Shown here: in pieces, positions 49,534 through 64,000 of the stretch
Layout of the letters: each line of letters starts with the position of its first letter
Numbering within the stretch: position 1 is the first letter of the stretch
NCBI GenBank assembly: GCA_000092065.1
Contig: CP000582.1
Origin: Ostreococcus lucimarinus
Lineage: Eukaryota
Direction: 5' to 3' (one strand)
Length of the DNA: 64,000 nt
The notes under the pieces: model-generated
The model's database searches: none
Seen by the model: only the letters and a program-made list of their open reading frames with translations
Told to the model about the DNA's origin: nothing
Position numbers and translations under genes: made by a program

Positions 49534-52017
49534 TTACTCGGGGTCGGATGGCGTCGTCGCCTTCGCCTTCACCGTGAAACGCGGCGTTTCGCGTCCAGGT
49601 GGACGGGGACGAGGTAACAGCGCTTTTCGACTCCATTTGATGCTTCCACGCGCGTCCTTCTTGACGCACTTCACCTCGACTTGATCGCCCACCGAATAAA
49701 CGTCGGATACATTTTCGGTGTGCTCGTGCGCAATTTCGCTCACGTGCAACAGCCCATCGTCGCCGGAAGCGGTAGTGAGCACGCAACCGAAAGGTAGCAC
49801 TTCTTTCACCGTGGTGGCGTACGTCTTGCCGACTTCTACGATGGAATTCTTCAAGTTTTCGATGTGCGCGATGGCGGCGTCGTACGACGCTTTATTTTGT
49901 CCAAACACAGCCAAGTCACCATCGTCGTTAACGACGGAAACCTTTGCCCCGGTTTCTTTTTCTAAAGCCTTAATATTCGAACCTTGAGGGCCGATAAGTT
50001 TCCCGATCAACGCCGGCGGCAGCGTCGCTCTGCCATAGCGAGGCGCGGAGTCCTTCATCACAGATTTTGGCTCGCTCACGGCGCGCTCCATTACGTCGAT
50101 GACTTTCTGCCTCGCCGCTGACGCGCGATCGAGCGCTTCGATGAGAATATCCAACGGAATGCCCGCAGGCTTACAATCGAGTTGAATGCCAGTGACGCCC
50201 GAACGTGTGCCCGCAATTTTAAAATCCATATCCCCTAAAACATCTTCGAGACCCATGATGTCGTCCATGAGCGCGTACCGCTTGACCTCGCCCGTTTCCT
50301 CGTCTTCGTCCATGACGAGACCGATCGAAATTGCGCCGACGTGCTCGGTGAGCGGCACGCCTGCATCCATGAGCGCCATGGATCCCGAGCACACGGCAGC
50401 CATAGAAGACGAACCGTTGCTCTCGAGAGTCTCGGTGTTCACGCGCACCGCAAATGGGAAAGCGTCCTCATCCGGAAAGACTCCCAAAAGCGACTTCTCC
50501 GCGAGTGCGCCGTGTCCAACCTCGCGCCGTGAAAGCCCCCTCGCACCGGTTTCGTTCACAGAAAACGAAGGGAACGAGTAGTGCAACATCAGACGCTTGG
50601 ACGTTGGACCCGTTAAATTGTCCAACCGCTGCGAGTCTTCGAGCGAGCCCAAGGTGACGGTGGCCAGCGCCTGCGTGTTCCCGCGCTCAAATAGTGCGCT
50701 GCCGTGCACGATGGGCATCGTTCCAGTGACACCGTCGAGATTGCGAAGTTCGTACACACCGCGTCCGTCGACGCGCACGCCCTCGTCGAGAACTCGTTCG
50801 CGAAGCACGCGACCGCACACGGCGAAGTACGCCGAACCCAACATGGCTTCGCTCACCTCACCACTCTCCATCCACTCCGGATGGCTATCCATGAGTTCGC
50901 GCACGACTTCGCTTTGTAGCTCCGCCATTTTACGCCCACGCTCGTGTTTATCCTGAATGTGCTCTTCGTAGAGCGCGACTAATCGCGCCTTGGCGACGTC
51001 GTAGCACGCGCGTTTCATCTCCGCCGTCACGGGAGCCGCCGCGAGCTCTTGCTTGGGCTTACCTATCTCGTTTGCGAGCGCGATTTGAGGAGGTATCAAC
51101 TCACGCACGGCTTCGTGCGCTTTTCGCAGCGCATCGGCGACTAAAGTTTCCTCCAAGCCCCCAGATTTATTACTCTGCGCCTCGATCATCAACGCTCGCG
51201 CTTCGTTCCCGGCGTAAAACAGAGTGAAATCTGAACTCTCCACCACCTCATCCGACGGCGAAACTATGATTGCTTTATTCACCACCGCCACTCGGACCGC
51301 GCCGATGGGTCCATTCCATGGAATGCTCGACGCCGTCAACGCCGCGCTCGCTCCGTTCACCGCCAACACCGCCGGATCCTCCACGCCGTCGCTCGCCATG
51401 ACGACGCACTGCAACATCACCTCCTTGGCGAAATTCTTCTCAAAAAGCGGCCGAGTCGCCCTATCGATCACCCGCATCGCCAGTATCTCCCTCTCTTTCG
51501 GCGCGCCCTCGCGTCGCGTGAACGTCGACGGAATCTTCCCCTTCGCGTACGACCGCTCGCGATAATCCACCATCAACGGCGCGAACCCTTTAATCAACGA
51601 CCCGTGATCGAGCTCTCGACTCGCCGTCGCCGCGCACAGCGCCACCGTTTCCCCACTGTACGCCAGCACCGCCCCATCCGTCAGCCGCGCGAGTCGTCCG
51701 CTTTCAAACGTGACTCGTCTCGGCGTCGCCGCGTTCGCGTCGCCGTCCTCGCGGCTCGTCGTCGCGCGCGCCGTCGCGCCCGGAAACTTTCCCTCCGTCG
51801 ACGACGACGCGCTCGCCGCGAACGCGCGCGTTCGTCCGCGCGTCTCCGTCTTCGCCGCGGCCGCGCCGTGCGTTCTTCCGCGCGTCGTCGTCGTCGATCG
51901 CGTCGCGCCGTCCGCCGCCACCGCGACGAGCGTCTTCGTCGCGTCCGCGCGCGCGCGAAGCGTCGCGTCGCGGCCGAACGCGCGCGCGAGCGCTCGCAGG
52001 GCGTTCGCGCGCGGCAT
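49534..52017 (-). CDS. PNP: Polyribonucleotide nucleotidyltransferase (PNPase), organellar
   Basis: Two RNase PH domains are present, plus KH (IGKLIGPQGSNIKALEKETGAKV) and S1 (VGKTYATTVKEVLPFGCVLT..GLLHVSEIA). My best start is ATG 52017 (MPRANALRALARAF..); the alternative is 52098. Track residues above that are antisense of the neighbouring NMO gene. Confidence 0.93.
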   Translation of the reverse strand: MPRANALRALARAFGRDATLRARADATKTLVAVAADGATRSTTTTRGRTHGAAAAKTETRGRTRAFAASASSSTEGKFPGATARATTSREDGDANAATPRRVTFESGRLARLTDGAVLAYSGETVALCAATASRELDHGSLIKGFAPLMVDYRERSYAKGKIPSTFTRREGAPKEREILAMRVIDRATRPLFEKNFAKEVMLQCVVMASDGVEDPAVLAVNGASAALTASSIPWNGPIGAVRVAVVNKAIIVSPSDEVVESSDFTLFYAGNEARALMIEAQSNKSGGLEETLVADALRKAHEAVRELIPPQIALANEIGKPKQELAAAPVTAEMKRACYDVAKARLVALYEEHIQDKHERGRKMAELQSEVVRELMDSHPEWMESGEVSEAMLGSAYFAVCGRVLRERVLDEGVRVDGRGVYELRNLDGVTGTMPIVHGSALFERGNTQALATVTLGSLEDSQRLDNLTGPTSKRLMLHYSFPSFSVNETGARGLSRREVGHGALAEKSLLGVFPDEDAFPFAVRVNTETLESNGSSSMAAVCSGSMALMDAGVPLTEHVGAISIGLVMDEDEETGEVKRYALMDDIMGLEDVLGDMDFKIAGTRSGVTGIQLDCKPAGIPLDILIEALDRASAARQKVIDVMERAVSEPKSVMKDSAPRYGRATLPPALIGKLIGPQGSNIKALEKETGAKVSVVNDDGDLAVFGQNKASYDAAIAHIENLKNSIVEVGKTYATTVKEVLPFGCVLTTASGDDGLLHVSEIAHEHTENVSDVYSVGDQVEVKCVKKDARGSIKWSRKALLPRPRPPGRETPRFTVKAKATTPSDPE

Positions 52018-52101
52018 CGGACGGCGCGTCGAGGTGTGCGGACGCGTCGCGCGCGTCGTCGTCACTCGTCGACGCGTTCGCATCGCATCGCGACGCATCG
52101 G

Positions 52102-53142
52102 ATGGCGCGACGCGCGCGCCTGCGCACGCGGCTCACCGATCTCGTTCCCGGACTCGAGCATCCCGTGACGCAGGGCGGCATGCACCACGTCGCGTACGCC
52201 GCGCTCGTCGCCGCGGTGTCGAACGCCGGCGCGCTCGGCACGCTCACGGCGCTGACGCAGCCGACGCCCGAGGATCTGCGACGAGAGATCGCGCGAACGC
52301 GCGCGATGATCACGCGGAGGAGCGAAAAGAGTAAGAGCGGATACGCGCCGTTCGCGGTGAACTTCACGCTGCTGCCGGCGCTGCGACCGCCGGATTACGA
52401 ATCGTACGCGAGGGTGATTTGCGAGAGCGACGTCGAGGTGGTGGAGACGGCGGGAGCGAATCCGGGGAAATTCATCGAGATGTTCAAGAAAAAGGGGATA
52501 ATAGTGATACATAAGTGCACGACGCTGCGACACGCGCTGGCGGCGGAGCGGTTGGGGGTGGACGCGGTGAGCGTGGACGGGTTCGAGTGCGCGGGACATC
52601 CGGGGACGAACGACGTGGGGGCGATGGTTTTGTTGGCCAAGGCGCGAGACGTGCTGACGGTACCGTTTCTAGCGTGCGGGGGGATAGGAACTGGGAGGCA
52701 ACTCGCGGCGGCGCTGGCTTTGGGCGCGGATGGGGTGTGCATGGGGACGAGATTTATGGCGACGCGCGAGGCGCCGATTAAGGATGGCATCAAACGCGCG
52801 TTAATCGCCGCCGACGAGAACCAAACCACGCTCGTCATGACGACGGTGAAGAATCACGAGCGGGTGTATAAGAATAAAGTCGCCGAAGAAGTGCGCGCGA
52901 TCGAGGCGGTGAAGCCCGGAGACTTTGGCGCGATTCACCATTTAGTGCGCGGGGAAAACTATCGCGTATCGTTTCAGGAAACCGGCGACGCCGAATCGAG
53001 CGTCTGGAGCGCCGGATGCGTCATGGGTCTCATCGACGACGCCCCATCGTGCGACGAACTCCTCACGCGCATCATCGACGAGGCTGTGGACGTGATGACG
53101 ACGCGACTACATCGCATGATTGTCGTAGACGCCGCGCTCTGA
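52102..53142 (+). CDS. Nitronate monooxygenase / 2-nitropropane dioxygenase family (FabK-like FMN oxidoreductase)
   Basis: ATG at 52102 (MARRARLRTRLTDLVPGLEHPVTQGGMHHVAYAALVAAVSNAGALGTL). NMO blocks are VNFTLLP, VVETAGANPG, GVDAVSVDGFECAGHPG, FLACGGIGTGRQLAAALALGADGVCMGTRF. Confidence 0.88.
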   Translation: MARRARLRTRLTDLVPGLEHPVTQGGMHHVAYAALVAAVSNAGALGTLTALTQPTPEDLRREIARTRAMITRRSEKSKSGYAPFAVNFTLLPALRPPDYESYARVICESDVEVVETAGANPGKFIEMFKKKGIIVIHKCTTLRHALAAERLGVDAVSVDGFECAGHPGTNDVGAMVLLAKARDVLTVPFLACGGIGTGRQLAAALALGADGVCMGTRFMATREAPIKDGIKRALIAADENQTTLVMTTVKNHERVYKNKVAEEVRAIEAVKPGDFGAIHHLVRGENYRVSFQETGDAESSVWSAGCVMGLIDDAPSCDELLTRIIDEAVDVMTTRLHRMIVVDAAL

Positions 53143-53242
53143 GCCGCGTTTCGCCGTAGAAGCTCCTTCTTCTCTCCTTCTCTTGTAGTTGACTTCATTT
53201 TCCCGCGCTCGGTCCTCGTCGTTCGCGCGCGCGCGCGCGAGC

Positions 53243-54379
53243 ATGTCGACCAAACCTTTCGACTACTCCAAATGGGACGCCATCGAGCTCAGCGACGACG
53301 AAGACAGCCATCCCGGGGCGCAATTCATCGAAGCTCAAACGCTGCGAAGGATCAAACGCGAGGCGCACGAGCACAAGGAGCGCGAGCGCATCGCGCGCGT
53401 GGACGCGCTGAAGACGAAAAAGAAGGCGCTGAAGCGCGAGATTAAAAGCGAGGAAGAGACGCTGGTGAGGACGGTGGAAACGCTGACGCCCGAAGCGGAC
53501 GGGAACGGGGACGGGGACGCGGCGAGACGCGCCGCGGAGACGGCGCGAGCGACGATCGAAGCGAAACGGACGGAACTCGCCGACGTTGAGCGTCAAATAG
53601 AGGCGTTGGAGCATCAAAAGAAGTTCAACGCGGAGGAGATGTGTTACGTGGCGAGTGAGAAGACATTGGTCGGCGCGGCGTGCAAGCCGGAGGAAGTGGC
53701 TCGAGCGCAAACGATGTCGTACGAAGAGTACGTGAAGACATACGGGGAGGATTTGGATGAAATTGCGAGCGGTAACGCGTCGATGTCGTACGGTGAGCTC
53801 GGAGAATGGTTCGCGAACGGCAAGTTGCACCTATTTTGTGAACACTCCACGGGATACTTGCTCTTGAAATCGCTTTACTTGGAGATGGAGAAGAAGACGC
53901 GCGAGGCGAGGACGTGCGCTCGGGTCGCTTTCGCTTGCAAATCCATCGGCGAATTCGCCGAGGCTGGTAAAAAGAGCGAGCGAGACGCGGCGGAACCATT
54001 TTTTAGACGACTAGACACCAACCCGGACGTCGCTCGCGAGTACGAAAAGTCCTTCGACGAGTACTTTGAAAAGCTCCGCGAGCGCGCCGAGGTCAAGCTT
54101 CGCGAGGAAGCCGCGTCGGCGTCCGCCGCCGAGCCCACGTCGCTCGAAGAAGTCCCTTTAGAAGACCGTCTCGGTCCCGGCGGTCTCGACCCGGTCGCCG
54201 TGTACGACGCCCTCCCTCGCGAGATGCGCGAAGCCTTCGATTCCGGCTCCGTCGACGCGTTGAAAAAATTTGTCAACTCCCTCCCCATGGACGAGGCTCG
54301 CGCGCACATGCGCGCGATGGTGGACAGCGGTCTTTGGGTTCCGACCCCGGGCGAGGATCCAGGCGAGGCTCTGCGCTGA
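53243..54379 (+). CDS. CDC37: Hsp90 co-chaperone Cdc37
   Basis: The real ATG at 53243 gives MSTKPFDYSKWDAIELSDDEDSHPGAQFIEAQTLRRIKREAHEHKERER, the canonical Cdc37 N-terminus. Middle and C-terminal domains follow. Confidence 0.9.
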   Translation: MSTKPFDYSKWDAIELSDDEDSHPGAQFIEAQTLRRIKREAHEHKERERIARVDALKTKKKALKREIKSEEETLVRTVETLTPEADGNGDGDAARRAAETARATIEAKRTELADVERQIEALEHQKKFNAEEMCYVASEKTLVGAACKPEEVARAQTMSYEEYVKTYGEDLDEIASGNASMSYGELGEWFANGKLHLFCEHSTGYLLLKSLYLEMEKKTREARTCARVAFACKSIGEFAEAGKKSERDAAEPFFRRLDTNPDVAREYEKSFDEYFEKLRERAEVKLREEAASASAAEPTSLEEVPLEDRLGPGGLDPVAVYDALPREMREAFDSGSVDALKKFVNSLPMDEARAHMRAMVDSGLWVPTPGEDPGEALR

Positions 54380-54494
54380 GCTCGGTCGTGTCGTCGCGAT
54401 TCCCTCGACGCGCGCGCGACCGCCTGATTTTTCAACTGTAACATCTGACCCTTCGTTTCCTCTTTCCCCTCACGCGCTCCCGCACACGCCGACG

Positions 54495-57400
54495 ATGCCC
54501 GCCGCCGACGCGGACGCGCCCGCGCGCGACGACGACGCGGGATTCGTCGTGCGCACCATCTCGAGGCGTCCGTGCGTGACCTGCGTCGCGACGCTCTTGT
54601 TCGCCGCGATAATTTCCGCCGTCGGTTTGGTGACGGGGACGCTCGAGGTGCAGACCGAAGGCTGGGAAACGCGCGGCACGCCGATCGCGAATCGCCAGGT
54701 GCCGTACAGCCTGTACAGCGAGAGCACGTTCGACGACGGCACGACGAACAACGCGTACCTGAGCGAACCGAACGCGCGACGAAAGTTGTTGTCTGGGACG
54801 CCCGACTGCGGAACGGGGGGGCAGTACGACTCGGAGAGCAACAGTAACATGGAGGACGACAACAATTTTCACTTGATATTCGAATCGACGGGGGGGGATT
54901 TGTTCACGCCGGAAGCGTTCGCGGATATGTGCAAGGCGACGGAGTCTTTCATGGATCACGCCAACGGGGGCGGCGACGGCGACGACTTTGGAAGCCTGTG
55001 CGAGCGACAGAGCGTATGCTCGAGCGCCAGCGATCCGCCGGGGACGACGTCGTCGGATTGGTCGTCGGGTGGGACGTATAAAGGAACGTGGCAGAACTGG
55101 CAGATCGAAACTTCGGGCTCGCCTTCGACGTACAGGCGATGCTCGCGGGCCTTTTCGTACCCCACGTATCTGTACATGAACACCGCCGGGGCCTCGAGCT
55201 GCGACGACTACTTAACAAACTCTGCGTTGCAAACGGCTCTGACGAATTTGAAGACATACTTACTCGCCTGCGCCCCCGTGAAGGCTGCTGATTCTGAGGC
55301 GGCTTGTTCGGGAACTTCGCCTGTGCCTTGGAAGTCGGCGGCGCTCGGTGAAGCTTTCGGCTTAAATGGCGTCACCGATTTATCGCTCACCCGCTCCATC
55401 ATCCCAACGACTGGCAACAGCGATATGATCGCAACATGGGGTTTGAACACGTGGGAAGGCGGTTGGACGTACTCGAGTTCGTATTTCAACGTGTACTATG
55501 ACACCGCTAGTTCGGACGTAAAAGACGCGTATGTCGACGAACAGCTGTTCAAAGACTTGGCGCTCGCCGTCAGCGCCATCTCCATCATTATCATCTTGAT
55601 GTGGGTGCACATGGGTTCGGTGCTATTGACCGTGGGTGGAATCGTACAAGTGCTACTGGCGTTCCCGTCGGCCATTTTCTTCACCAAGACGCTCTGTCAA
55701 CTCGACTTCTTTCCGTTTCTCAACTTCATCGGTCTTTTTGTGATCGCCGGCATCGGCGCCGACGATTGCTTCGTGATGTACGACAAGTTCCAACAGTCCA
55801 AGTGTCGGTGCGTCCCCGGGGCGAACGCTACGGAAGTCATGAAACGCGCGTATTGGGATTCCGCGTGGGCCATGTTTTTGACGTCGATGACTACGGCTGC
55901 AGCGTTCTACTCGAACGCAATCATACCCATCGCTCCCATTCGCGTCTTCGCAATTTTCATGGGCACGATGGTCATATTTGACTATCTGTATGATATCACG
56001 ATATTTGCCGCTTTGCTGGCATGGCAGCACGACGTCATCGTTGGGTACGAAAACACTGGCAAGAACACGTTTGGGTCGTGGTTTCTGGATTTTTATGGCT
56101 CAATCGCACGCTTTCGAGCCAACTGCAAGAAAGGACCACCAAAAACCCGCGACGCTGACGATGTCATCGATTCCAACCGCGAACGAAGATCGGTGGCTGA
56201 AGCTATGCTCGCAGACAAAGTGTTCCCCATCATTCACACACTCCGGTGGTTCCTCGTGGTGGCTCTCATCGGTGCTTTTGCGGGCGGCATGGTCGGCACT
56301 TTGAAGCTGTCGACTCCGCGTGACTCGGAAGTCCAATTGCTCCCTGACGACCACATGTTCACGAAATTTTCGTTCCTCAGGCGTTCAGGCTTCAAGAGCT
56401 CAACGGAGTCTCAGGTGTGGACGAAAGTTCTGTGGGGGGTTACTCCGTCGGACAATGGCGATCACTTCAACCCCGCGAGCCGAGCTTCGATTGAATGGGA
56501 CACGTCGTTCGATCTTTCACCCACTGCGAATCAAAACTGGTTGAAGACTTTTTGCAGTGACACAAAGTCGAACATGGCGAACGATAACGCAGCGTATTGT
56601 TGGTTCGAATACTTTGAAACTTGGCTCGGCTCGGCGGGTGGCCCGACCGAGTGTGGCGGCTACAAATTCATTCCAGTCCCTCAGGCCAACTTTTACAGTT
56701 GCGTCAAGTATTACGCCGATCAGAATCCAAGTGTACAGATGATGTCTCGCCCACTCTCGAACGCGTTCTACACTAGTAATGGCCAAACAAGGATGAAAAT
56801 CATGTCGGTGCAGTTCGCCACAAACGTATTGTGGACCGCGCCTACGGAAGACCTTGAAAAAGTCTGGCAAACTTGGGAGAACTATTTCGCGGCCAAGATG
56901 GCGACAGCACCAGCTGGACTTAAGAACGGGTTTCAAACGTCTGACGCATGGGCTTGGATGGATACCGTCGCTCAGATGCGAGACGGTGCGTACATCGCGG
57001 CCGGGACGACGCTCGCAATCGCTGCGGTGACGACGATGATCTCCACGCAAAACGTCATCATCACCTTGTACTCACTGTTGTGCATCTTGACGATTCTCGT
57101 CGTCACGGTCGCCGGGGTCGTTTCCATGGGCTGGAATCTCGGGTTCCTCGAAGGGATCTGTCTCGTCATCTTAATCGGGCTTTCGGTTGATTACGTCGTT
57201 CACATCGGGCACGCGTACGCGCACGCTGCTCGCCACGAAGGCGTCAGTCGTCGGGAATGCGCTCGCTCGGCGCTCAGTGTCATGGGTTTCCCCGTCCTCG
57301 GTGCGGCGTTCACAACTCTGTGCGCTGCGCTTGCGTTACTTCAAGCCGTGATCGTCTTTTTCACAAAGTTCGGCACCATCGTCGTGCTCTCCGCCGTCTT

Positions 57401-57530
57401 CTCGTCCATCGTCTCCGTCGTGTTGTTCATCGGCCTGCTCGCGGCGGCGGGTCCGGTCAACGGTATGGGCGACGTCACGCGCCTCTGTGGACGAAAAGCG
57501 TTGTCCAAGAGCAAGAGCATTGCGTACTAA
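54495..57530 (+). CDS. Patched/Dispatched-like RND-superfamily membrane protein with sterol-sensing-domain-type TM bundles
   Basis: The real ATG is at 54495 (MPAADADAP...). The layout is two times (large loop plus 5-6 TM bundle). Motifs are FVIAGIGADDCFVMYD and ILIGLSVDYVVHIGHAY (GxxxD-type RND motifs). Track residues 54270..54494 overlap the CDC37 end and were rejected. Confidence 0.8.
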   Translation: MPAADADAPARDDDAGFVVRTISRRPCVTCVATLLFAAIISAVGLVTGTLEVQTEGWETRGTPIANRQVPYSLYSESTFDDGTTNNAYLSEPNARRKLLSGTPDCGTGGQYDSESNSNMEDDNNFHLIFESTGGDLFTPEAFADMCKATESFMDHANGGGDGDDFGSLCERQSVCSSASDPPGTTSSDWSSGGTYKGTWQNWQIETSGSPSTYRRCSRAFSYPTYLYMNTAGASSCDDYLTNSALQTALTNLKTYLLACAPVKAADSEAACSGTSPVPWKSAALGEAFGLNGVTDLSLTRSIIPTTGNSDMIATWGLNTWEGGWTYSSSYFNVYYDTASSDVKDAYVDEQLFKDLALAVSAISIIIILMWVHMGSVLLTVGGIVQVLLAFPSAIFFTKTLCQLDFFPFLNFIGLFVIAGIGADDCFVMYDKFQQSKCRCVPGANATEVMKRAYWDSAWAMFLTSMTTAAAFYSNAIIPIAPIRVFAIFMGTMVIFDYLYDITIFAALLAWQHDVIVGYENTGKNTFGSWFLDFYGSIARFRANCKKGPPKTRDADDVIDSNRERRSVAEAMLADKVFPIIHTLRWFLVVALIGAFAGGMVGTLKLSTPRDSEVQLLPDDHMFTKFSFLRRSGFKSSTESQVWTKVLWGVTPSDNGDHFNPASRASIEWDTSFDLSPTANQNWLKTFCSDTKSNMANDNAAYCWFEYFETWLGSAGGPTECGGYKFIPVPQANFYSCVKYYADQNPSVQMMSRPLSNAFYTSNGQTRMKIMSVQFATNVLWTAPTEDLEKVWQTWENYFAAKMATAPAGLKNGFQTSDAWAWMDTVAQMRDGAYIAAGTTLAIAAVTTMISTQNVIITLYSLLCILTILVVTVAGVVSMGWNLGFLEGICLVILIGLSVDYVVHIGHAYAHAARHEGVSRRECARSALSVMGFPVLGAAFTTLCAALALLQAVIVFFTKFGTIVVLSAVFSSIVSVVLFIGLLAAAGPVNGMGDVTRLCGRKALSKSKSIAY

Positions 57531-57593
57531 TCGGTGCAACTTGTACGGCTTTTTACAAATTTTTCACTTTACTGTAATTTATTACAACACTCT

Positions 57594-58529
57594 TCACACG
57601 CCGGCCTGCGCGACGCGTTGAAGAAACATCTCAAACGAATCCACGTACGCCCGCTTCCCCTCTCCCACGCGCGCCTCCTGGTAAAGCGCGCACGACGTCT
57701 CCTGGTAAAGCGCGCACGACGTCTCGACCGCATCGCCTGAATATCCTCGCAATGTCGCGCGGGCGAATACTAAACTCGGCCGCGACGCGCCTTCGTGGTC
57801 GAACACATCCGTCGCGCGCACGGCGTCGTCGCCGAATGCCGCCACCATCGCCGCCAACAACCGCGCGCGGCCAAGACTGGGGTAGACGACAAAAAATTCT
57901 CCATCCTCTCTCAGCGCCTCCTTTGCGAACCCGATAAAGTCGTGAATCGTCGCCGCGCCTCCATCCTCCAGTATGCCAAACCGAGCGCCTTTTTTCTCTT
58001 TATTCTTCGGCGGCGTCCCGCGCGTCGCCTCGAAAAACGGTGGGTTCGTCAGCACCACATCGAACGCCCGCCGCATTTTACGATCGTCCAGCAGCGCCCG
58101 CGCGTCTTCCACGACATCCCCCGGCACGACGTCGAACGCATCGCTCGCTCGCGCGTTCGTCTCGACGCTTCGTCGAAGCCTCTCGCAGCTGTCCCGCTGC
58201 GCCTCGACGAACGTCGCGCGCGCGGGCCGCGCTCCCGACAGCGCGTACGCGAGCCCGACCGCCCCGCTCGAGCCCGCCCCGAGGTCGCACGCGCGATCGG
58301 CGAAACTCTCGACGTCGCCGCGGCTTCGTCTCGCGAACCACGCGAGGGCGAGGGCGTCGACGCCCGTGCGGTAGCCGACTTTGCTTTGCACCACGCGAAG
58401 CTTCGAGGCGCCGAGCACGTCGAGAGTTTCGCCGTCGGCGACGCGCGGCGCGCGCGGAGCGGTCGAAAGCGCGCGGACGATCGTCGTCGCGGGACGAGCG
58501 GCGCGAGGGGACGCGAGCGCGGCGCGCAT
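57594..58529 (-). CDS. N6-adenine methyltransferase of the bacterial TrmN6/YfiC type (SAM-dependent, NPPF motif), probable organellar
   Basis: The real ATG is at 58529 (MRAALASPRAARPATT...). Blocks: LRVVQSKVGYRTGVDALALAWFA, DLGAGSSGAVGL (SAM-binding motif) and VLTNPPFFE. A C-terminal tandem duplication reads ETSCALYQ ETSCALYQ. Confidence 0.7.
   Translation of the reverse strand: MRAALASPRAARPATTIVRALSTAPRAPRVADGETLDVLGASKLRVVQSKVGYRTGVDALALAWFARRSRGDVESFADRACDLGAGSSGAVGLAYALSGARPARATFVEAQRDSCERLRRSVETNARASDAFDVVPGDVVEDARALLDDRKMRRAFDVVLTNPPFFEATRGTPPKNKEKKGARFGILEDGGAATIHDFIGFAKEALREDGEFFVVYPSLGRARLLAAMVAAFGDDAVRATDVFDHEGASRPSLVFARATLRGYSGDAVETSCALYQETSCALYQEARVGEGKRAYVDSFEMFLQRVAQAGV
57674..57721. 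repeat. Perfect 2 x 24-bp tandem duplication inside the methyltransferase CDS
   Basis: CTCCTGGTAAAGCGCGCACGACGT occurs at 57674..57697 and again at 57698..57721. It is in frame and duplicates 8 codons. Confidence 0.95.
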
Positions 58530-58737
58530 GGGTGGGGAGTCGCGCGCGCGAGGCGGCGACTGCCGTCGCGCGCGTCTTCGGTAGCCGCGTCGTCGTCGTC
58601 GTTGGGTCACAAACGTCTACGTGGGCGCGCGTCGCCAGTTCTTCTAATTAATCGTTGATCACGTACACACAATACACTCTCACGCCTCCCGCCTATCGTT
58701 GTCGAATAAAGAATTGTATTCTTCTCGCCGAGCGCGT

Positions 58738-59459
58738 TTACGCCGTCAAGAGACCCTTGTCCCGTCGCAACTCTTGCTTGTACTTGGACATGCGCGCCTT
58801 GCGTCGAGCGCCGGTGTTCTTGTGCAAGATCCCCCGCGCCACGGCCTTATCCACGGACTTTGTCGCTTCCGAGATCAACGTTTCCAAACCGCTAATATCC
58901 GCCTCCGTGCACGCGTCCGCCGCCATGAGTTCGCTCGCGTTGACGAAAACCTTCTTCATTCGCGTCGTGATTTCAGACTTTCGCGCCTTGTTATACAAGC
59001 GTTCCTTTTGCGACAATCGCGTGCGCGCAACCTTGTTTTGCGCCGCGCGCACGATGAAAGCCCCTCGAGCCGGCGACGCCGTCGTCGAGCCTGCGCGCGC
59101 GCGACCCCGCGTTTAGGGTTCCAGGTCAGTCACCGCCCCGTCCGCGCGCTTCTTATCTCCCCCTTCCTCCCGCGCGCGCGACGCGCGTTCGCCCGTCGCG
59201 CGCCGTCGAGCGATCGTCGAGAAACGCATCGTCCTCTTCCCGCGATCGCGCGACGCGTCGCGCCGCGCGCGCGCGCCCGCGACCCCTCATCGCCGCGCGC
59301 GCGCCTCCCACCGCGTCGCGCGCCGTCGCGCGCGCGTCGTCGCGCGTCGCGCGTCGCGCGTCGCGCGTCGCCCGGAGCGCGTCCGATTCGACGATTCGTA
59401 CCTCGAGCGAGCGCGGTCTTGGACGCGACGGCGTTGGAGAACGTGAGCGCGGCGTGCAT
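58738..59459 (-). CDS. PRPS20: Bacterial-type ribosomal protein bS20, organellar (plastid-type transit peptide), two exons: join(58738..59090,59402..59459)
   Basis: The track ORF starts with GTG and has no in-frame ATG before the upstream TAA at 59115..59113. Exon 1 is ATG(59459) MHAALTFSNAVASKTALAR + G|GTACGA. Exon 2 follows GCGCGCAG| and supplies GC, completing Gly. The result is ...ARGSTTASPARGAFIVRAAQNKVARTRLSQKERLYNKARKSEITTRMKKV...HKNTGARRKARMSK (S20 family). Confidence 0.85.
59091..59401 (-). other. bS20 intron (311 nt)
   Basis: Donor GTACGAA at 59401. ACTGAC at 59130..59125 lies 34 nt before the acceptor GCAG ending at 59091. Phase 1. It contains (GCGCGTCG)x4 around 59331..59370. Confidence 0.82.
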
Positions 59460-59651
59460 GGCGCGTCGATGTGTGCGGCGTCGCGCGCGCGGCGACGTCG
59501 CCGCGCCGGCGCGCGCGAAAAGAGCCTTAAATATGAGATTTGATGGCGCGACGGCGGTGTCGTTCGTACGTTCGTGTGTTTATCACTGTTTACACATACA
59601 CAGATTGCGCGGTCGGTCGCGCCCGTCGGTCGCGCGCGCGCGCGCGTCCGC

Positions 59652-60368
59652 ATGGCGCCGCGCGCGCTCGCCGCGCGCGCGCGTCCGGCGCCGATTCGCG
59701 CGCGCGCTCGAAGAGAACGTCGTCGCGCTCTCGCGTCGTCGTCGAGCGCGAGCGACGAGCTGTGCGCGCGCGTGGACGAGCTGAATGCATTCGTCGGCTG
59801 CGAGACGCGCGCGGTGACGGTGCGCGAGCGCGCGCTCGGCCGCGGCGCGTTCGGCGTCGTCCTGCGCGCGTCTCGCGACGGCGGCGTCGGCGCGCTCGAC
59901 GCGCTGGTGACGCGGCGGAGCGAGACGAAGGACGTGTGGCCGGGCGGGACGGACGCGGCGACGAGCGGCGTGGTGCGCGCGACGCGAGGGCGCGACGGCG
60001 AGGCGGCGGCGGCGGAGACGTACGAGGAAACGATGCGACGGGAGCTGGAGGAAGAGCTCGGGAGCGATGCGGCGAGAGGCGCGAGCGTGCGGGAGTTGTT
60101 CACGTTTCCGTACGAGGACGCGTACATGCGAGTGTTCGGCGCGTGCTTTGAAATCGTGCTCAGGGACGACGCCGAAATCGAATTCGCGGACGGCGAAGTG
60201 GCGGCGGCGAGATTCGTGAGTCTGGATGAGTTGGCGAGGAGCCTGAGAGAGGGGCGGGAGAATTTCACGCCGATCGGGAAGTACGTGCTGGAGTCGTACT
60301 TGGCCTTCGTCGAGACGGGCGCGCGGCCGCCCTCGGCGTGGGCCGAGCGGCGCGTCGAACCTTCGTGA
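59652..60368 (+). CDS. NUDIX hydrolase with presequence
   Basis: ATG at 59652 (MAPRALAARARPAPIR...). The Nudix box is GG..(x)..ETYEETMRRELEEELG (E-x7-REUxEExGU). Confidence 0.75.
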   Translation: MAPRALAARARPAPIRARARRERRRALASSSSASDELCARVDELNAFVGCETRAVTVRERALGRGAFGVVLRASRDGGVGALDALVTRRSETKDVWPGGTDAATSGVVRATRGRDGEAAAAETYEETMRRELEEELGSDAARGASVRELFTFPYEDAYMRVFGACFEIVLRDDAEIEFADGEVAAARFVSLDELARSLREGRENFTPIGKYVLESYLAFVETGARPPSAWAERRVEPS

Positions 60369-60437
60369 GAGACGAGTGCTTTGCATTTAAAAATAATCGC
60401 GCTAGTGTAGAGTGTAGTATAATTCGTTTGGATGTAG

Positions 60438-61472
60438 TCAGTTCTCTAAGCCGTCCGTGCGGGTGGCCGGTCCCACGGCTTTTTCCATGCGCTCGTACCA
60501 GGGGCGGATCGAAGTGTTCGCCATGACGTCCGCGAACGTCTCAAACGTCTTCACGGCGCGCAAGACACCGAACACGCACAAATCTGCGTTATTCGGCGCA
60601 TCGCCGCCGCAGAATTTACGAGAGCCGACCGCTTCGTCGACGAACTTGTCGCACTCGGCGTATAAATCGGCGCGCTCGTCCTCGATTCCGTGTCGCTTCT
60701 TCAGCACGCGATGGGCGATGACGTACATGGACGCCGCCCCCACCCATCTCGCGCTCTCGCGCTCAAAGTACCCAAAATTCCCTCTCTTTGTGATGTAATC
60801 GAAAGATTTCACCGCTTCCGCCCACGTGCGGTAGATGTTCGGCGTCAAAACGTGCACGAAGCGTTCGTCGACCCACTTCGTCCACGTCGCCTCGCGTTCG
60901 AGGTACGCCTTCGTCTTCTTCGCCCCGAACCACGCCCCCGCGTTCGCGCTCGACCCGCTCGCGTCGAACCGCTTCGTGAGCTCGGCGATGATCGCGCTCG
61001 AATCGTTCAACTTTTCGTCCCCCACGGTGACGATCGGGACCTTTTTCCATCCATCCTCGACCCATCCCAGTTCGCCCTTCGTCATCGGGTTCACCTCCAC
61101 GACGTCGTACGGCGTCCCGTGATAATCCAAAAACGCCTTCACCTTGTTACAGAACGGGCACACGTCGTACTGATACAGCGTCACGCGCGCGCCTCCGAGC
61201 GCCGCGTCCGCCGGGCTCGTCCTCGGCGCCTCCGCGCTCGCCTCGCGTCCCGCCGTCGTCGCCGCGAGCGCCGCCGCCGCCGCCGCCGCCGCCGTCGCCG
61301 TCGCCGCCGTCCCCGCGCGCGTCCTCGTCGACGCGCGCGCCGTCGTCGCCGCCGTCGACGCGCGATGCGTCATCGCGCGCGTCGTCGTCGCGCGCATCGG
61401 CGTCGCGCGCGTCACCGCGTCGCGCATCAGCGACATCGCCCGTCGACGCGCCGACGCCGTCGTCGTCATCAT
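60438..61472 (-). CDS. PTGES2: Prostaglandin E synthase 2-like protein (glutaredoxin-like N-domain + GST-C-like domain)
   Basis: ATG at 61472. Sequence: VTLYQYDVCPFCNKVKAFLDYHGTPYDVVEVNP....WKKVPIVTVGDEKLNDSSAIIAEL (CPFC thioredoxin fold), then a GST-C-like helix bundle. The N-terminus is T/A-rich. Confidence 0.82.
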   Translation of the reverse strand: MMTTTASARRRAMSLMRDAVTRATPMRATTTRAMTHRASTAATTARASTRTRAGTAATATAAAAAAAALAATTAGREASAEAPRTSPADAALGGARVTLYQYDVCPFCNKVKAFLDYHGTPYDVVEVNPMTKGELGWVEDGWKKVPIVTVGDEKLNDSSAIIAELTKRFDASGSSANAGAWFGAKKTKAYLEREATWTKWVDERFVHVLTPNIYRTWAEAVKSFDYITKRGNFGYFERESARWVGAASMYVIAHRVLKKRHGIEDERADLYAECDKFVDEAVGSRKFCGGDAPNNADLCVFGVLRAVKTFETFADVMANTSIRPWYERMEKAVGPATRTDGLEN

Positions 61473-61687
61473 TCCGAATCGATCGTCCGCGCGTTCGCGC
61501 GCGCGTCGGCGATGCCTCGGCGCGAGACCGCGGCGTCGACGATGCCCTCGCGCGCCGTCGTCGAGCCCGCGCGCGCGTCGTCGTCGCGTCGCGAAGTCTC
61601 GTCGACGCGCCGTCGATGCGCGCGCGACGTCACGTCGCGACGCGCGACGACGACGGCGCGCGACGTCGCGCGCGCCGCGCGAGCGGG

Positions 61688-62770
61688 ATGTCGAGCGACG
61701 ACGCGCCGACGTTCGACGCGCTCGAGACGCGCCGCGCGTGCCGCGCGCTGCTGCCGACGCTCGATTTAGAGCGCGCGACCGAACGCTCGGTGCGCGAGGC
61801 CGTGCGCGACGCCCTGCGCGCGGCGCGCGGCGACGACGGGCGAGACGTCGATCGAATCGTCGTGCAAAACGAGATCGACGCGTTCCTGGGGCGCGCGGAC
61901 GCGGCGGTGGCGGCGAACGAGGACGGCGAGCGCGGGGCGACGACGACGGCGACGACGAAGCGCGAACGCGTCGACGACGAGGGGTCGCCGACGACCGGAG
62001 GGAATAAGAGGGCGAGCGCGACGGCGGAAGAGAGCGCGCTGGATGAAACGCGAGTGTTGGCGGCGCTGGAGGCGATCGGAGAGGACGGGACGGAGGCGAA
62101 GGCGTTGGCGAGCTTTTTGAAGCGCGACAAGACGGCGGTGAACAAGGCGCTGTACGCGATGGCGGCGCGCGGATCGGCGAGGAGAGAAGACGGCGAGGGC
62201 GGGGCGCCGAGGTGGTTCGTGGCGAACGCGAGGGTCGGTGCGAGCGAGGCGGCGACGACGCAGAGCGCGCGGCCGGCGAGCTCGACGGCGGACGCGGCGA
62301 CGACGGACGCGGCGACGAGCGCGGGCGGCGACGACGCGGTGGAGAACGAAGTCGTGGCGCTGTCGAAGACGAAGCGCGTGACGGTGCGAAAGTGGAAGGA
62401 AACGACGCTCGTTGACATTCGCGAGTACTATCAAGCCGGTGGCGAGGGACCGTACAAGCCGGGGAAGAAAGGGATTTCGTTGTCTTCGGCGCAGTGGCGG
62501 GTGCTCGACGCGAACATCGATAAAGTGGCGAGCGCCATCGAGGCGTGCGAGGCGTCGAGCCAAGAGCAGCTGGTGTGCGAGATGTCGAACACGCGACGGT
62601 GCACGGTGAGCAAGTACAAAGGGAAAGTTTTGGTCAACATTCGCGAGTACTACGAAAAAGATGGCGAGATGCGACCGGGAATGAAAGGAGCGTCTCTCGC
62701 GGTCGAAGCAGCGCGACGTCTCGTCGCGCACGCGTCGCAAATTTCTGCGCGCGTGGCTAGCCTCGAGTAG
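61688..62770 (+). CDS. KELP-like transcriptional coactivator: DEK-C domain + Z-alpha-like winged helix + two tandem PC4/Sub1 ssDNA-binding domains
   Basis: ATG at 61688 (MSSDDAPTFDALE...; alternative ATG at 61616). DEK-C-like: TRRACRALLPTLDLERATERSVREAVRDAL..IVVQNEIDAFL. Winged helix: RVLAALEAIGEDGTEAKALASFLKRDKTAVNKALYAMAARG...APRWFV. PC4 copies: LSKTKRVTVRKWKETTLVDIREYYQAG..YKPGKKGISLSSAQW and MSNTRRCTVSKYKGKVLVNIREYYEKDGEMRPGMKGASLAVEAA. Confidence 0.8.
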   Translation: MSSDDAPTFDALETRRACRALLPTLDLERATERSVREAVRDALRAARGDDGRDVDRIVVQNEIDAFLGRADAAVAANEDGERGATTTATTKRERVDDEGSPTTGGNKRASATAEESALDETRVLAALEAIGEDGTEAKALASFLKRDKTAVNKALYAMAARGSARREDGEGGAPRWFVANARVGASEAATTQSARPASSTADAATTDAATSAGGDDAVENEVVALSKTKRVTVRKWKETTLVDIREYYQAGGEGPYKPGKKGISLSSAQWRVLDANIDKVASAIEACEASSQEQLVCEMSNTRRCTVSKYKGKVLVNIREYYEKDGEMRPGMKGASLAVEAARRLVAHASQISARVASLE

Positions 62771-62844
62771 ATTTGGAAGAAGATGTGGAACACCGACGAA
62801 ATGTAAAACGATGAACGAAATGCTTACCAAGGCGCTCGCGATGC

Positions 62845-64000
62845 TCACTCCTCGAACGGTTGTTCGAGTAACTCTTTTCGAATCCACACCGCGTAATCGT
62901 CGCCGTGCGTTGCGAGCTCGAACTCTGCGATTTGAGCGAGTATTTCACCCGGAACGTCGTATCTCGGCCCTAGCTTGACGATGATTTTGTCATCGATGAC
63001 CGCGACGTATAAATCGCTCTCGGCGATTTTGATGTCAACTCTGCTCTCGCAGCACACGTTGGCGAGCTTACGGCAGCTCAACAAAGCTCGAATTTCTGAT
63101 GTTAGCGATTAGGACCAACCCAAGTTTTCGTCGCAGCACCAAATGTGCGGGCCAAACACGCAGGGAATGCCGGGATGCAGAAGCGTGTACGCGTAACCCA
63201 AACCGAGACGATCGAGTGGAAACGGCCAGTGATTCTGCGGGTATCCGGTATCGTGGTTGTCGAGAAATGTCACAGCACTTTGCGGTACCCAGCCGGCAAG
63301 CCCAGGCATGCCGCCTTGCTGGTCTCGTAGCCGCCAAAACTCTACTCGCTTGACTGCTTCTTGTAGAATTCCCTTGGTCACGAAGTCGAACAACGCCGCG
63401 CATTCGTCTGCGGCGTTCAACCAATCCACGAGCACGCGTCTCGGCTTGTCTTGATTGTACTCGAGAAAGCTTCCCGACCACGTCATCCCGACCCAGTTCT
63501 CGCCGACGCAGAATTGCTCAAATCCAACCGTTTTCTCCACATACTCTCTCACGAAATTCGGAGCGTAGCCTTGGACGAAATCGAACCTCCATCCGCTGAA
63601 ACCGATGTCATCTTTCAACCAGTTCAACCACTCGATGATCGCTTCGCGAATCTCGGCGTTTGTGTGGTCGAGATCAGGGGCGATTTCGATCGAGTCGCCA
63701 CTATCGTTGGCTCCTTGACCTTCGCGAAAAAATGGATCGTCGCCGACGATGGCGTAAGCTCCCCAATTTATTCGTCTCCCGCTCGGCGTTACTTCGTCCG
63801 CAAACGAGATGAAGCGGCCATCCGAAGCGTACTCAGCGCAACGATGGTTGATGACGATGTCGCACACGGCTACTATTCCGGCTTTTTTCAGAGCCTGTAC
63901 CAACGATTTAAGCTCCGCTTCATCGCCGTACTCGCTACCGTCCAAGTTGTAAATTTCCGATGGCATGTAACCGTGCTCGTCTACCGATAACGACGGTGGA
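62845..64000 (-). CDS. Plant-type alpha-amylase (GH13), 5'-truncated by the right window edge; interrupted by one in-frame TAA (63111..63109)
   Basis: My own translation to the edge reads ..PPSLSVDEHGYMPSEIYNLDGSEYGDEAELKSLVQALKKAGIVAVCDIVINHRCAEY.., GWRFDFVQGY, FCVGENW, TFLDNHDTG, AYTLLHPGIPCVF. The separate track ORF 62845..63084 (ESRVDIKIAESDLYVAVIDDKIIVKLGPRYDV...HGDDYAVW) is the amylase C-terminal beta-domain in the same frame. It has no ATG of its own (the track start is TTG). Confidence 0.9.

Follow-up and report, generated by a model that had tools for sequence, protein, structure and literature searches.

We found that a plastid-type GH13 alpha-amylase gene in the sequenced strain of Ostreococcus lucimarinus is interrupted by one in-frame TAA codon, and the comparisons reported below make it very probable that this codon is a strain-private nonsense mutation (CAA to TAA, Q500*) in an otherwise intact, intronless gene. 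The window referred to throughout is the whole 64,000-nucleotide stretch of contig CP000582.1 (assembly GCA_000092065.1) that was analysed. The event we propose is a single C-to-T transition at position 63111 on the minus strand, which would have converted the Gln codon 500 (CAA) into TAA. The premature stop is real and specific, and the GT..AG bracket that surrounds it is not specific. The initial annotation had offered three readings of the interruption, namely an ultra-short intron, a recoding event and a fresh pseudogene. The last of these stood up as a fresh pseudogene or null allele, with one transition set against CAA in all of the 18 environmental contigs compared and with TAA found in three sequencing runs of one and the same genotype, while the intron and the recoding event did not.

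The amylase gene and its internal stop codon

The plant-type alpha-amylase frame opens at 63999 on the minus strand, and its translation indicates that the gene reaches past the end of the window. The frame opening at 63999 translates as ...GIPCVFGPHIWCCDENLGWS*SLTSEIRALLSCRK...ELLEQPFEE* and contains a single internal stop, TAA at 63111..63109, before the end codon TGA at 62847..62845. The parts of the gene are as follows.

62845..62847, minus strand: normal stop codon of the amylase gene, TGA (translation)
62848..63108, minus strand: in-frame remainder past the TAA, comprising helix alpha8 (LTSEIRALLSCRKL) and the C-terminal beta domain (PF07821, structural model)
63096..63119, minus strand: 24-nt GT..AG segment GTTGGTCCTAATCGCTAACATCAG, proposed as an intron; coding for a clade-specific loop as judged from the comparison with relatives
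63109..63111, minus strand: premature TAA stop, named Q500* after the residue numbers of the intact 587-aa allele; position 63111 is T in the window and C in the intact alleles
63112..64000, minus strand: catalytic (beta/alpha)8-barrel part of the plant-type GH13 alpha-amylase (translation, PF00128, alignment with barley AMY2 1amy_A)

The translation agrees with the description in the initial annotation of collinear catalytic and C-terminal beta domains in the same frame, parted by this one TAA, and recomputing the 24-nt GT..AG segment returned the same coordinates, 63119..63096. Pfam placed the catalytic domain (PF00128) on one half of the split frame and the C-terminal beta domain (PF07821) on a leftover open reading frame (ORF) of 78 aa. 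The motifs that carry the catalytic Asp, Glu and Asp (GWRFDF, VGENW and NHDTG, respectively) are all present in the window translation. Both GH13 domains and the Asp/Glu/Asp triad are encoded, and the ORF of the strain is split by TAA at codon 500; the remainder at 62848..63108 is untranslated if the TAA terminates translation. No second amylase copy was found within the window, and an Rfam search of the whole window gave 0 hits. The convergent neighbour of the amylase gene (61616..62770, plus strand) encodes a 384-aa protein in which Pfam recognizes a z-alpha domain (Z-DNA/Z-RNA-binding type) fused to PC4, an unusual pairing in a green alga.

Intact alleles in nature and the stop in the sequenced strain

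A protein search with the "spliced" amylase sequence as query gave as its best match a 587-aa protein from an ENA metagenome (P0001), which reads ...HIWCCDENLGWSQSLTSEIRALL... across the stop site. The contig encoding it (L001) aligns without gaps to 2,390 nt of the window at 99.58% identity, and its position matching 63111 is C, giving CAA (Gln), whereas the window has T and hence TAA. In JGI metagenomes, four contigs with lengths of 290-330 kb (L002-L005) match the window at 99.0-99.2% identity across the 12.7-13.6 kb that were compared. The codon is CAA in all five contigs (L001-L005), and in each of them an ORF of 587-589 aa runs without interruption. CAA was also present in four short JGI contigs (L013-L016), which cover the convergent neighbour gene as well and none of which was recognizable as cDNA. 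The same codon stood in nine of the nine contigs (L017-L025) obtained from JGI metagenomes in a scan for the pattern TTGGGTTGGTCCYAATCGCTAACATCAG, in which Y stands at the site. Taking the environmental contigs of 99.0-99.7% identity together (L001-L005 and L013-L025), CAA was found in 18/18 and TAA in 0/18. The intact amylase gene has no introns.

The protein data give the same picture. The 90%-identity protein cluster has 176 members, of which 14 were listed and 40 read. Twelve of the 13 other listed members read through the codon, with GWSQSLTS in eleven and GWSESLPK in one, and the thirteenth (P0132), a protein of 499 aa, ends in ...CDENLGWS. Comparison of the orthologous locus in sister genotypes, a check that the initial annotation had proposed, yielded CAA and a read-through ORF, the stop being private to the sequenced strain among the genotypes compared.

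The TAA was reproduced in the strain. Three Logan contigs encode the 499-aa protein, one each from SRR1179203 (L008, 13.3 kb), SRR1179204 (L010, 2.9 kb) and SRR23274481 (L009, 8.9 kb). All of them match the window at 100% identity over 1.3-2.7 kb, TAA included, two of the three also match each other at 100% identity over 8.9 kb, and the 78-aa leftover C-terminal ORF occurs on the same three Logan contigs only. The window assembly may itself stem from one of the three runs, in which case these sources may amount to two independent data sets rather than four. A comparison of 12 genes among as many as 10 genotypes gave the amylase Q500* as the sole nonsense difference, and the indels of the window were all multiples of three. 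On these two observations the window assembly is clean and the stop a true feature of this clone.

These data bear directly on the possibility that the TAA is a sequencing or assembly error and that the strain actually carries CAA, as the initial annotation had allowed. Such an error would account for a one-base difference from all relatives; nevertheless, we consider it very unlikely, given that three runs, assembled separately and belonging to two accession series, all show TAA on contigs that match the window at 100% identity, and that the 10 other window genes show no frame-breaking differences.

The differences between alleles bear on the age of the mutation. The strain allele differs from the commonest environmental allele (that of L004) by one synonymous change and three replacements (A246V, F537V and L542I), in addition to the stop, and all three replacements lie in the mature enzyme. 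The alleles of L001 and L005 each differ from that of L004 by four synonymous and two replacement changes, and those replacements are all located in the N-terminal extension. The replacement pattern in the strain allele may hint at relaxed constraint, although numbers so low are far from sufficient for a test and the excess is non-significant. The 88 codons past the stop differ from L004 only by F537V and L542I, the second of which is also polymorphic in nature (environmental allele P0124). As the downstream codons differ by these two replacements only, the event is very recent, or the region could still be in use.

Several other differences between the genotypes were recorded around the locus. 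Relative to 50434..64000 of the window, the long JGI contigs (L002-L005) have frame-breaking indels in low-complexity runs of the CDC37, rhodanese, MTS, PC4 and Patched-like genes, which are likely to be long-read errors or microsatellite variation in the metagenome assemblies. The Patched/sterol-sensing gene (~54000..57100, minus strand) has more replacement than synonymous differences among near-identical genotypes (seven synonymous and 13 replacement between the window and L002). In the window it has also lost a net 21 nt in frame, and it is either fast-evolving or endowed with a low-complexity segment. Outside the window, a 747-nt stretch of the strain with a DUF179 ORF (L008 3124..3870, SRR1179203) is absent from L002, and at the start of the L003 locus the place of the L002 CemA gene is taken by a zf-CCHC ORF. 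These differences suggest a polymorphism ~7 kb past the end of the window, in the form of a presence/absence or a break in synteny. The PNPase of the window is 78% identical to that of O. tauri, 83-84% to those of environmental relatives and 54% to that of Bathycoccus, values that place the source of the window with the Ostreococcus-like picoalgae of the Mamiellales.

The proposed 24-nt intron and possible recoding of the stop

An ultra-short intron of 24 nt was one of the possibilities raised in the initial annotation. On this reading the TAA would be removed from the mRNA as part of a spliceosomal intron of 24 nt, or of a cryptic one of 33, 39 or 63 nt, and a full-length enzyme would be produced. 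In its favour, the segment begins with GT, ends with AG and contains CTAAC, and small introns without conserved motifs occur in the same algal order: the big outlier chromosome of Mamiellales carries small AT-rich introns of 40-65 bp (PMC3491373). In addition, deleting the 24 nt gives ...CCDENLEIRALL..., by which a plant-like length is regained, the length in this stretch being the same as in barley, plant and chlorophyte enzymes. The length match to plants noted initially was thus confirmed, but it is coincidental, since the clade carries an 8-residue insertion at this place. Eight relatives of 62-73% identity (P0002-P0009) all have an insertion of 8-14 aa at the stop site in comparison with the plant and chlorophyte enzymes (for example, YCRSNTLKG, MCWPKSLPG and ACWNANLPR). 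The residues aligned to the stop in relatives are Q, E, N, K, A or S, and the loop reads GWSQSLTS in the intact alleles. Because the Mamiellales-type relatives keep the insertion exactly there, the match to Arabidopsis and barley arises from nothing more than the length of a clade-specific loop. As judged from these alignments, the 24-nt GT..AG segment is ordinary coding sequence of a clade-specific surface loop. The Mamiellales-type amylases (P0001-P0009) share, in the region 63085..63140 (minus strand), a Cys-containing beta8-alpha8 insertion of the form W-C-x-D ... C-W/R/P ..., and, following alpha8, a conserved C-C-E-S. Plant and chlorophyte enzymes have neither of these features, which may form a redox or disulfide element.

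The comparative data speak against splicing, as the 24 nt are coding and in frame, with CAA, in the 18 near-identical contigs, and their protein counterpart is kept in all clade relatives. An in-frame GT..AG bracket of <=24 nt is possible by chance around 27% of the codons of the amylase ORF, and one of <=63 nt around 79%. A scan for frame-preserving brackets of <=70 nt gave, besides the 24-nt one, exactly the three alternatives that had been listed before, of 33 nt (63119..63087), 39 nt (63115..63077) and 63 nt (63139..63077), and these would remove the conserved EIRALL helix. At 24 nt, the segment is shorter than the 40-65 bp small introns of Mamiellales and than the 311-nt intron found in the window. 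The latter lies in the gene for a plastid-type ribosomal protein S20 (59401..59091, minus strand); it is GC-rich, with GTACGA as its donor and an ACTGAC element 34 nt ahead of the AG. We verified it by hand, the automated scan keyed on ACTGAC being too noisy in GC-rich DNA, and this one intron, the only one checked, supports the earlier description of a window intron class with ACTGAC. In contrast, the donor of the 24-nt segment is GTTGGT, its CTAAC would place the branch A only ~6 nt from the AG, and a sequence check confirmed the earlier remark that it lacks ACTGAC.

We also looked for predicted products in a collection of 15 billion proteins by an exact look-up, a test of low sensitivity since it demands identity over the full sequence. 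The collection had none of the four hypothetical spliced proteins, nor the one protein with Gln readthrough, nor either of two versions with alternative starts; the spliced junctions had been tried with the N-terminus of P0132, and the 24-nt one also from two other start Met residues. With the segment coding in every intact allele and every clade relative and its termini at chance level, the 24-nt intron of the initial annotation does not hold, and splicing of this or one of the longer brackets is extremely unlikely.

Recoding of the TAA, by programmed readthrough or by a variant code in which TAA specifies Gln, is no easier to sustain, and we regard it as extremely improbable. It would be consistent with the Gln of the relatives, as the intact alleles carry Gln (CAA) exactly at the position of the TAA, and codes with TAA = Gln occur in other eukaryotes. 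However, TAA terminates INO1, S20 and CemA in the same genotypes, where TGA and TAG are used too, by which a variant code with TAA = Gln is ruled out. The stop is present in 0/18 environmental alleles, so there is no conserved recoding site. CARYYA and CUAG are readthrough motifs, and the context TAA-UCG-CUA matches neither of them and is not known to fit any other. No stimulatory RNA structure was found in the 136 nt around and downstream of the stop, which fold no better than shuffled sequences (z = +0.88). The recoding option was therefore abandoned: conservation of the stop and a stimulatory RNA structure are both lacking, and TAA serves as a normal terminator. As a separate observation, the gene for inositol-1-phosphate synthase, outside the window, ends in TAA in an environmental genotype (L004 751..753) and in TAG in the strain (L008 4551..4553).

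We give very little credence to the proposition that the strain still makes full-length or near-full-length amylase, whether by 24-nt splicing or by efficient readthrough of the TAA. In the case of splicing, the segment would be a cryptic micro-intron unmasked de novo by a nonsense mutation, and no shorter intron is known from green algae.

Predicted consequences for the enzyme and comparison with known systems

The position of the stop in the enzyme was deduced from an alignment with barley AMY2 and from a structural model. The intact protein P0001 aligns with residues 2-401 of 1amy_A (E = 2e-110), and its catalytic residues D343, E370 and D453 are invariant in 44 homologues. The AlphaFold2 model of P0001 has a mean pLDDT of 79, with values >90 for most of the barrel, and its elements around the stop are as follows.

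Residues 481-485: strand beta8
Residues 491-501: clade-specific loop
Residues 502-515: helix alpha8
Residues 524-577: C-terminal beta domain

Both the barley alignment and the model place the TAA in the loop that connects beta8 to alpha8. Q500* removes 88 residues, consisting of alpha8 and the whole C-terminal beta domain, which are conserved in all 44 aligned homologues. At the other end of the protein, model confidence is very low over about the first 110 residues of the N-terminal extension, which is taken to include a transit peptide.

With Q500* as a nonsense allele, translation would end at the TAA under the standard code and give a protein of 499 residues, which would keep beta1-beta8 and the three catalytic carboxylates and would lack alpha8 and the C-terminal beta domain. 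Such a product is expected to be unstable, misfolded or inactive. That it is instead a functional, shortened isoform and the allele no null is least likely of all, for although the three catalytic residues and beta1-beta8 all lie upstream of the stop, the part lost is conserved in every aligned homologue and the truncation was seen in no natural genotype compared.

Of several alpha-amylase genes, one would thus be present in the strain as a recent null allele, its loss being tolerated through paralogues. Four alpha-amylase genes have been reported in O. tauri (PMC3056741), so loss of one copy is plausibly tolerated. From this we infer that Q500* is probably a null allele compensated by other alpha-amylase genes. 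The sequenced strain probably lacks one alpha-amylase isoform, which is relevant to work on starch metabolism or the diel cycle. For annotation, the gene should not be rescued with an artificial micro-intron, and the case illustrates that a length match to distant homologues misleads when a closer clade has an insertion exactly at the stop. In other respects Q500* is an ordinary feature and bears on no open biological question.

Ultra-short spliceosomal introns of ~15-30 nt occur as genome-wide populations in chlorarachniophyte nucleomorphs and in ciliates. The candidate studied here shares with them a comparable length and GT..AG ends; however, it is a single case and is contradicted by the comparative data. 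With the small introns of the big outlier chromosome of Mamiellales it has in common that it is short, without conserved motifs and from the same algal order (PMC3491373), but it differs from them in being only 24 nt long and coding in all relatives, the intact gene being intronless.

The enzyme itself is of the barley AMY1/AMY2 type (1amy, 1ht6), with which it shares the PF00128 and PF07821 domains and the invariant catalytic Asp/Glu/Asp. Unlike the barley enzymes, the intact algal allele has an N-terminal extension of ~150 residues and a Cys-containing beta8-alpha8 insertion of 8-14 aa, inside which the stop of the strain falls.

The closest parallel to Q500* is provided by strain-specific nonsense alleles, also called unitary "fresh" pseudogenes. 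As in these, there is one premature stop in an intact, conserved ORF, close relatives have intact alleles and the mutation is fixed in the sequenced clone. In contrast to them, there is almost no downstream decay here, and loss of function is a prediction from the sequence and the model. Q500* would thus mark the earliest stage of pseudogenisation, unless it is no more than a variant of the culture.
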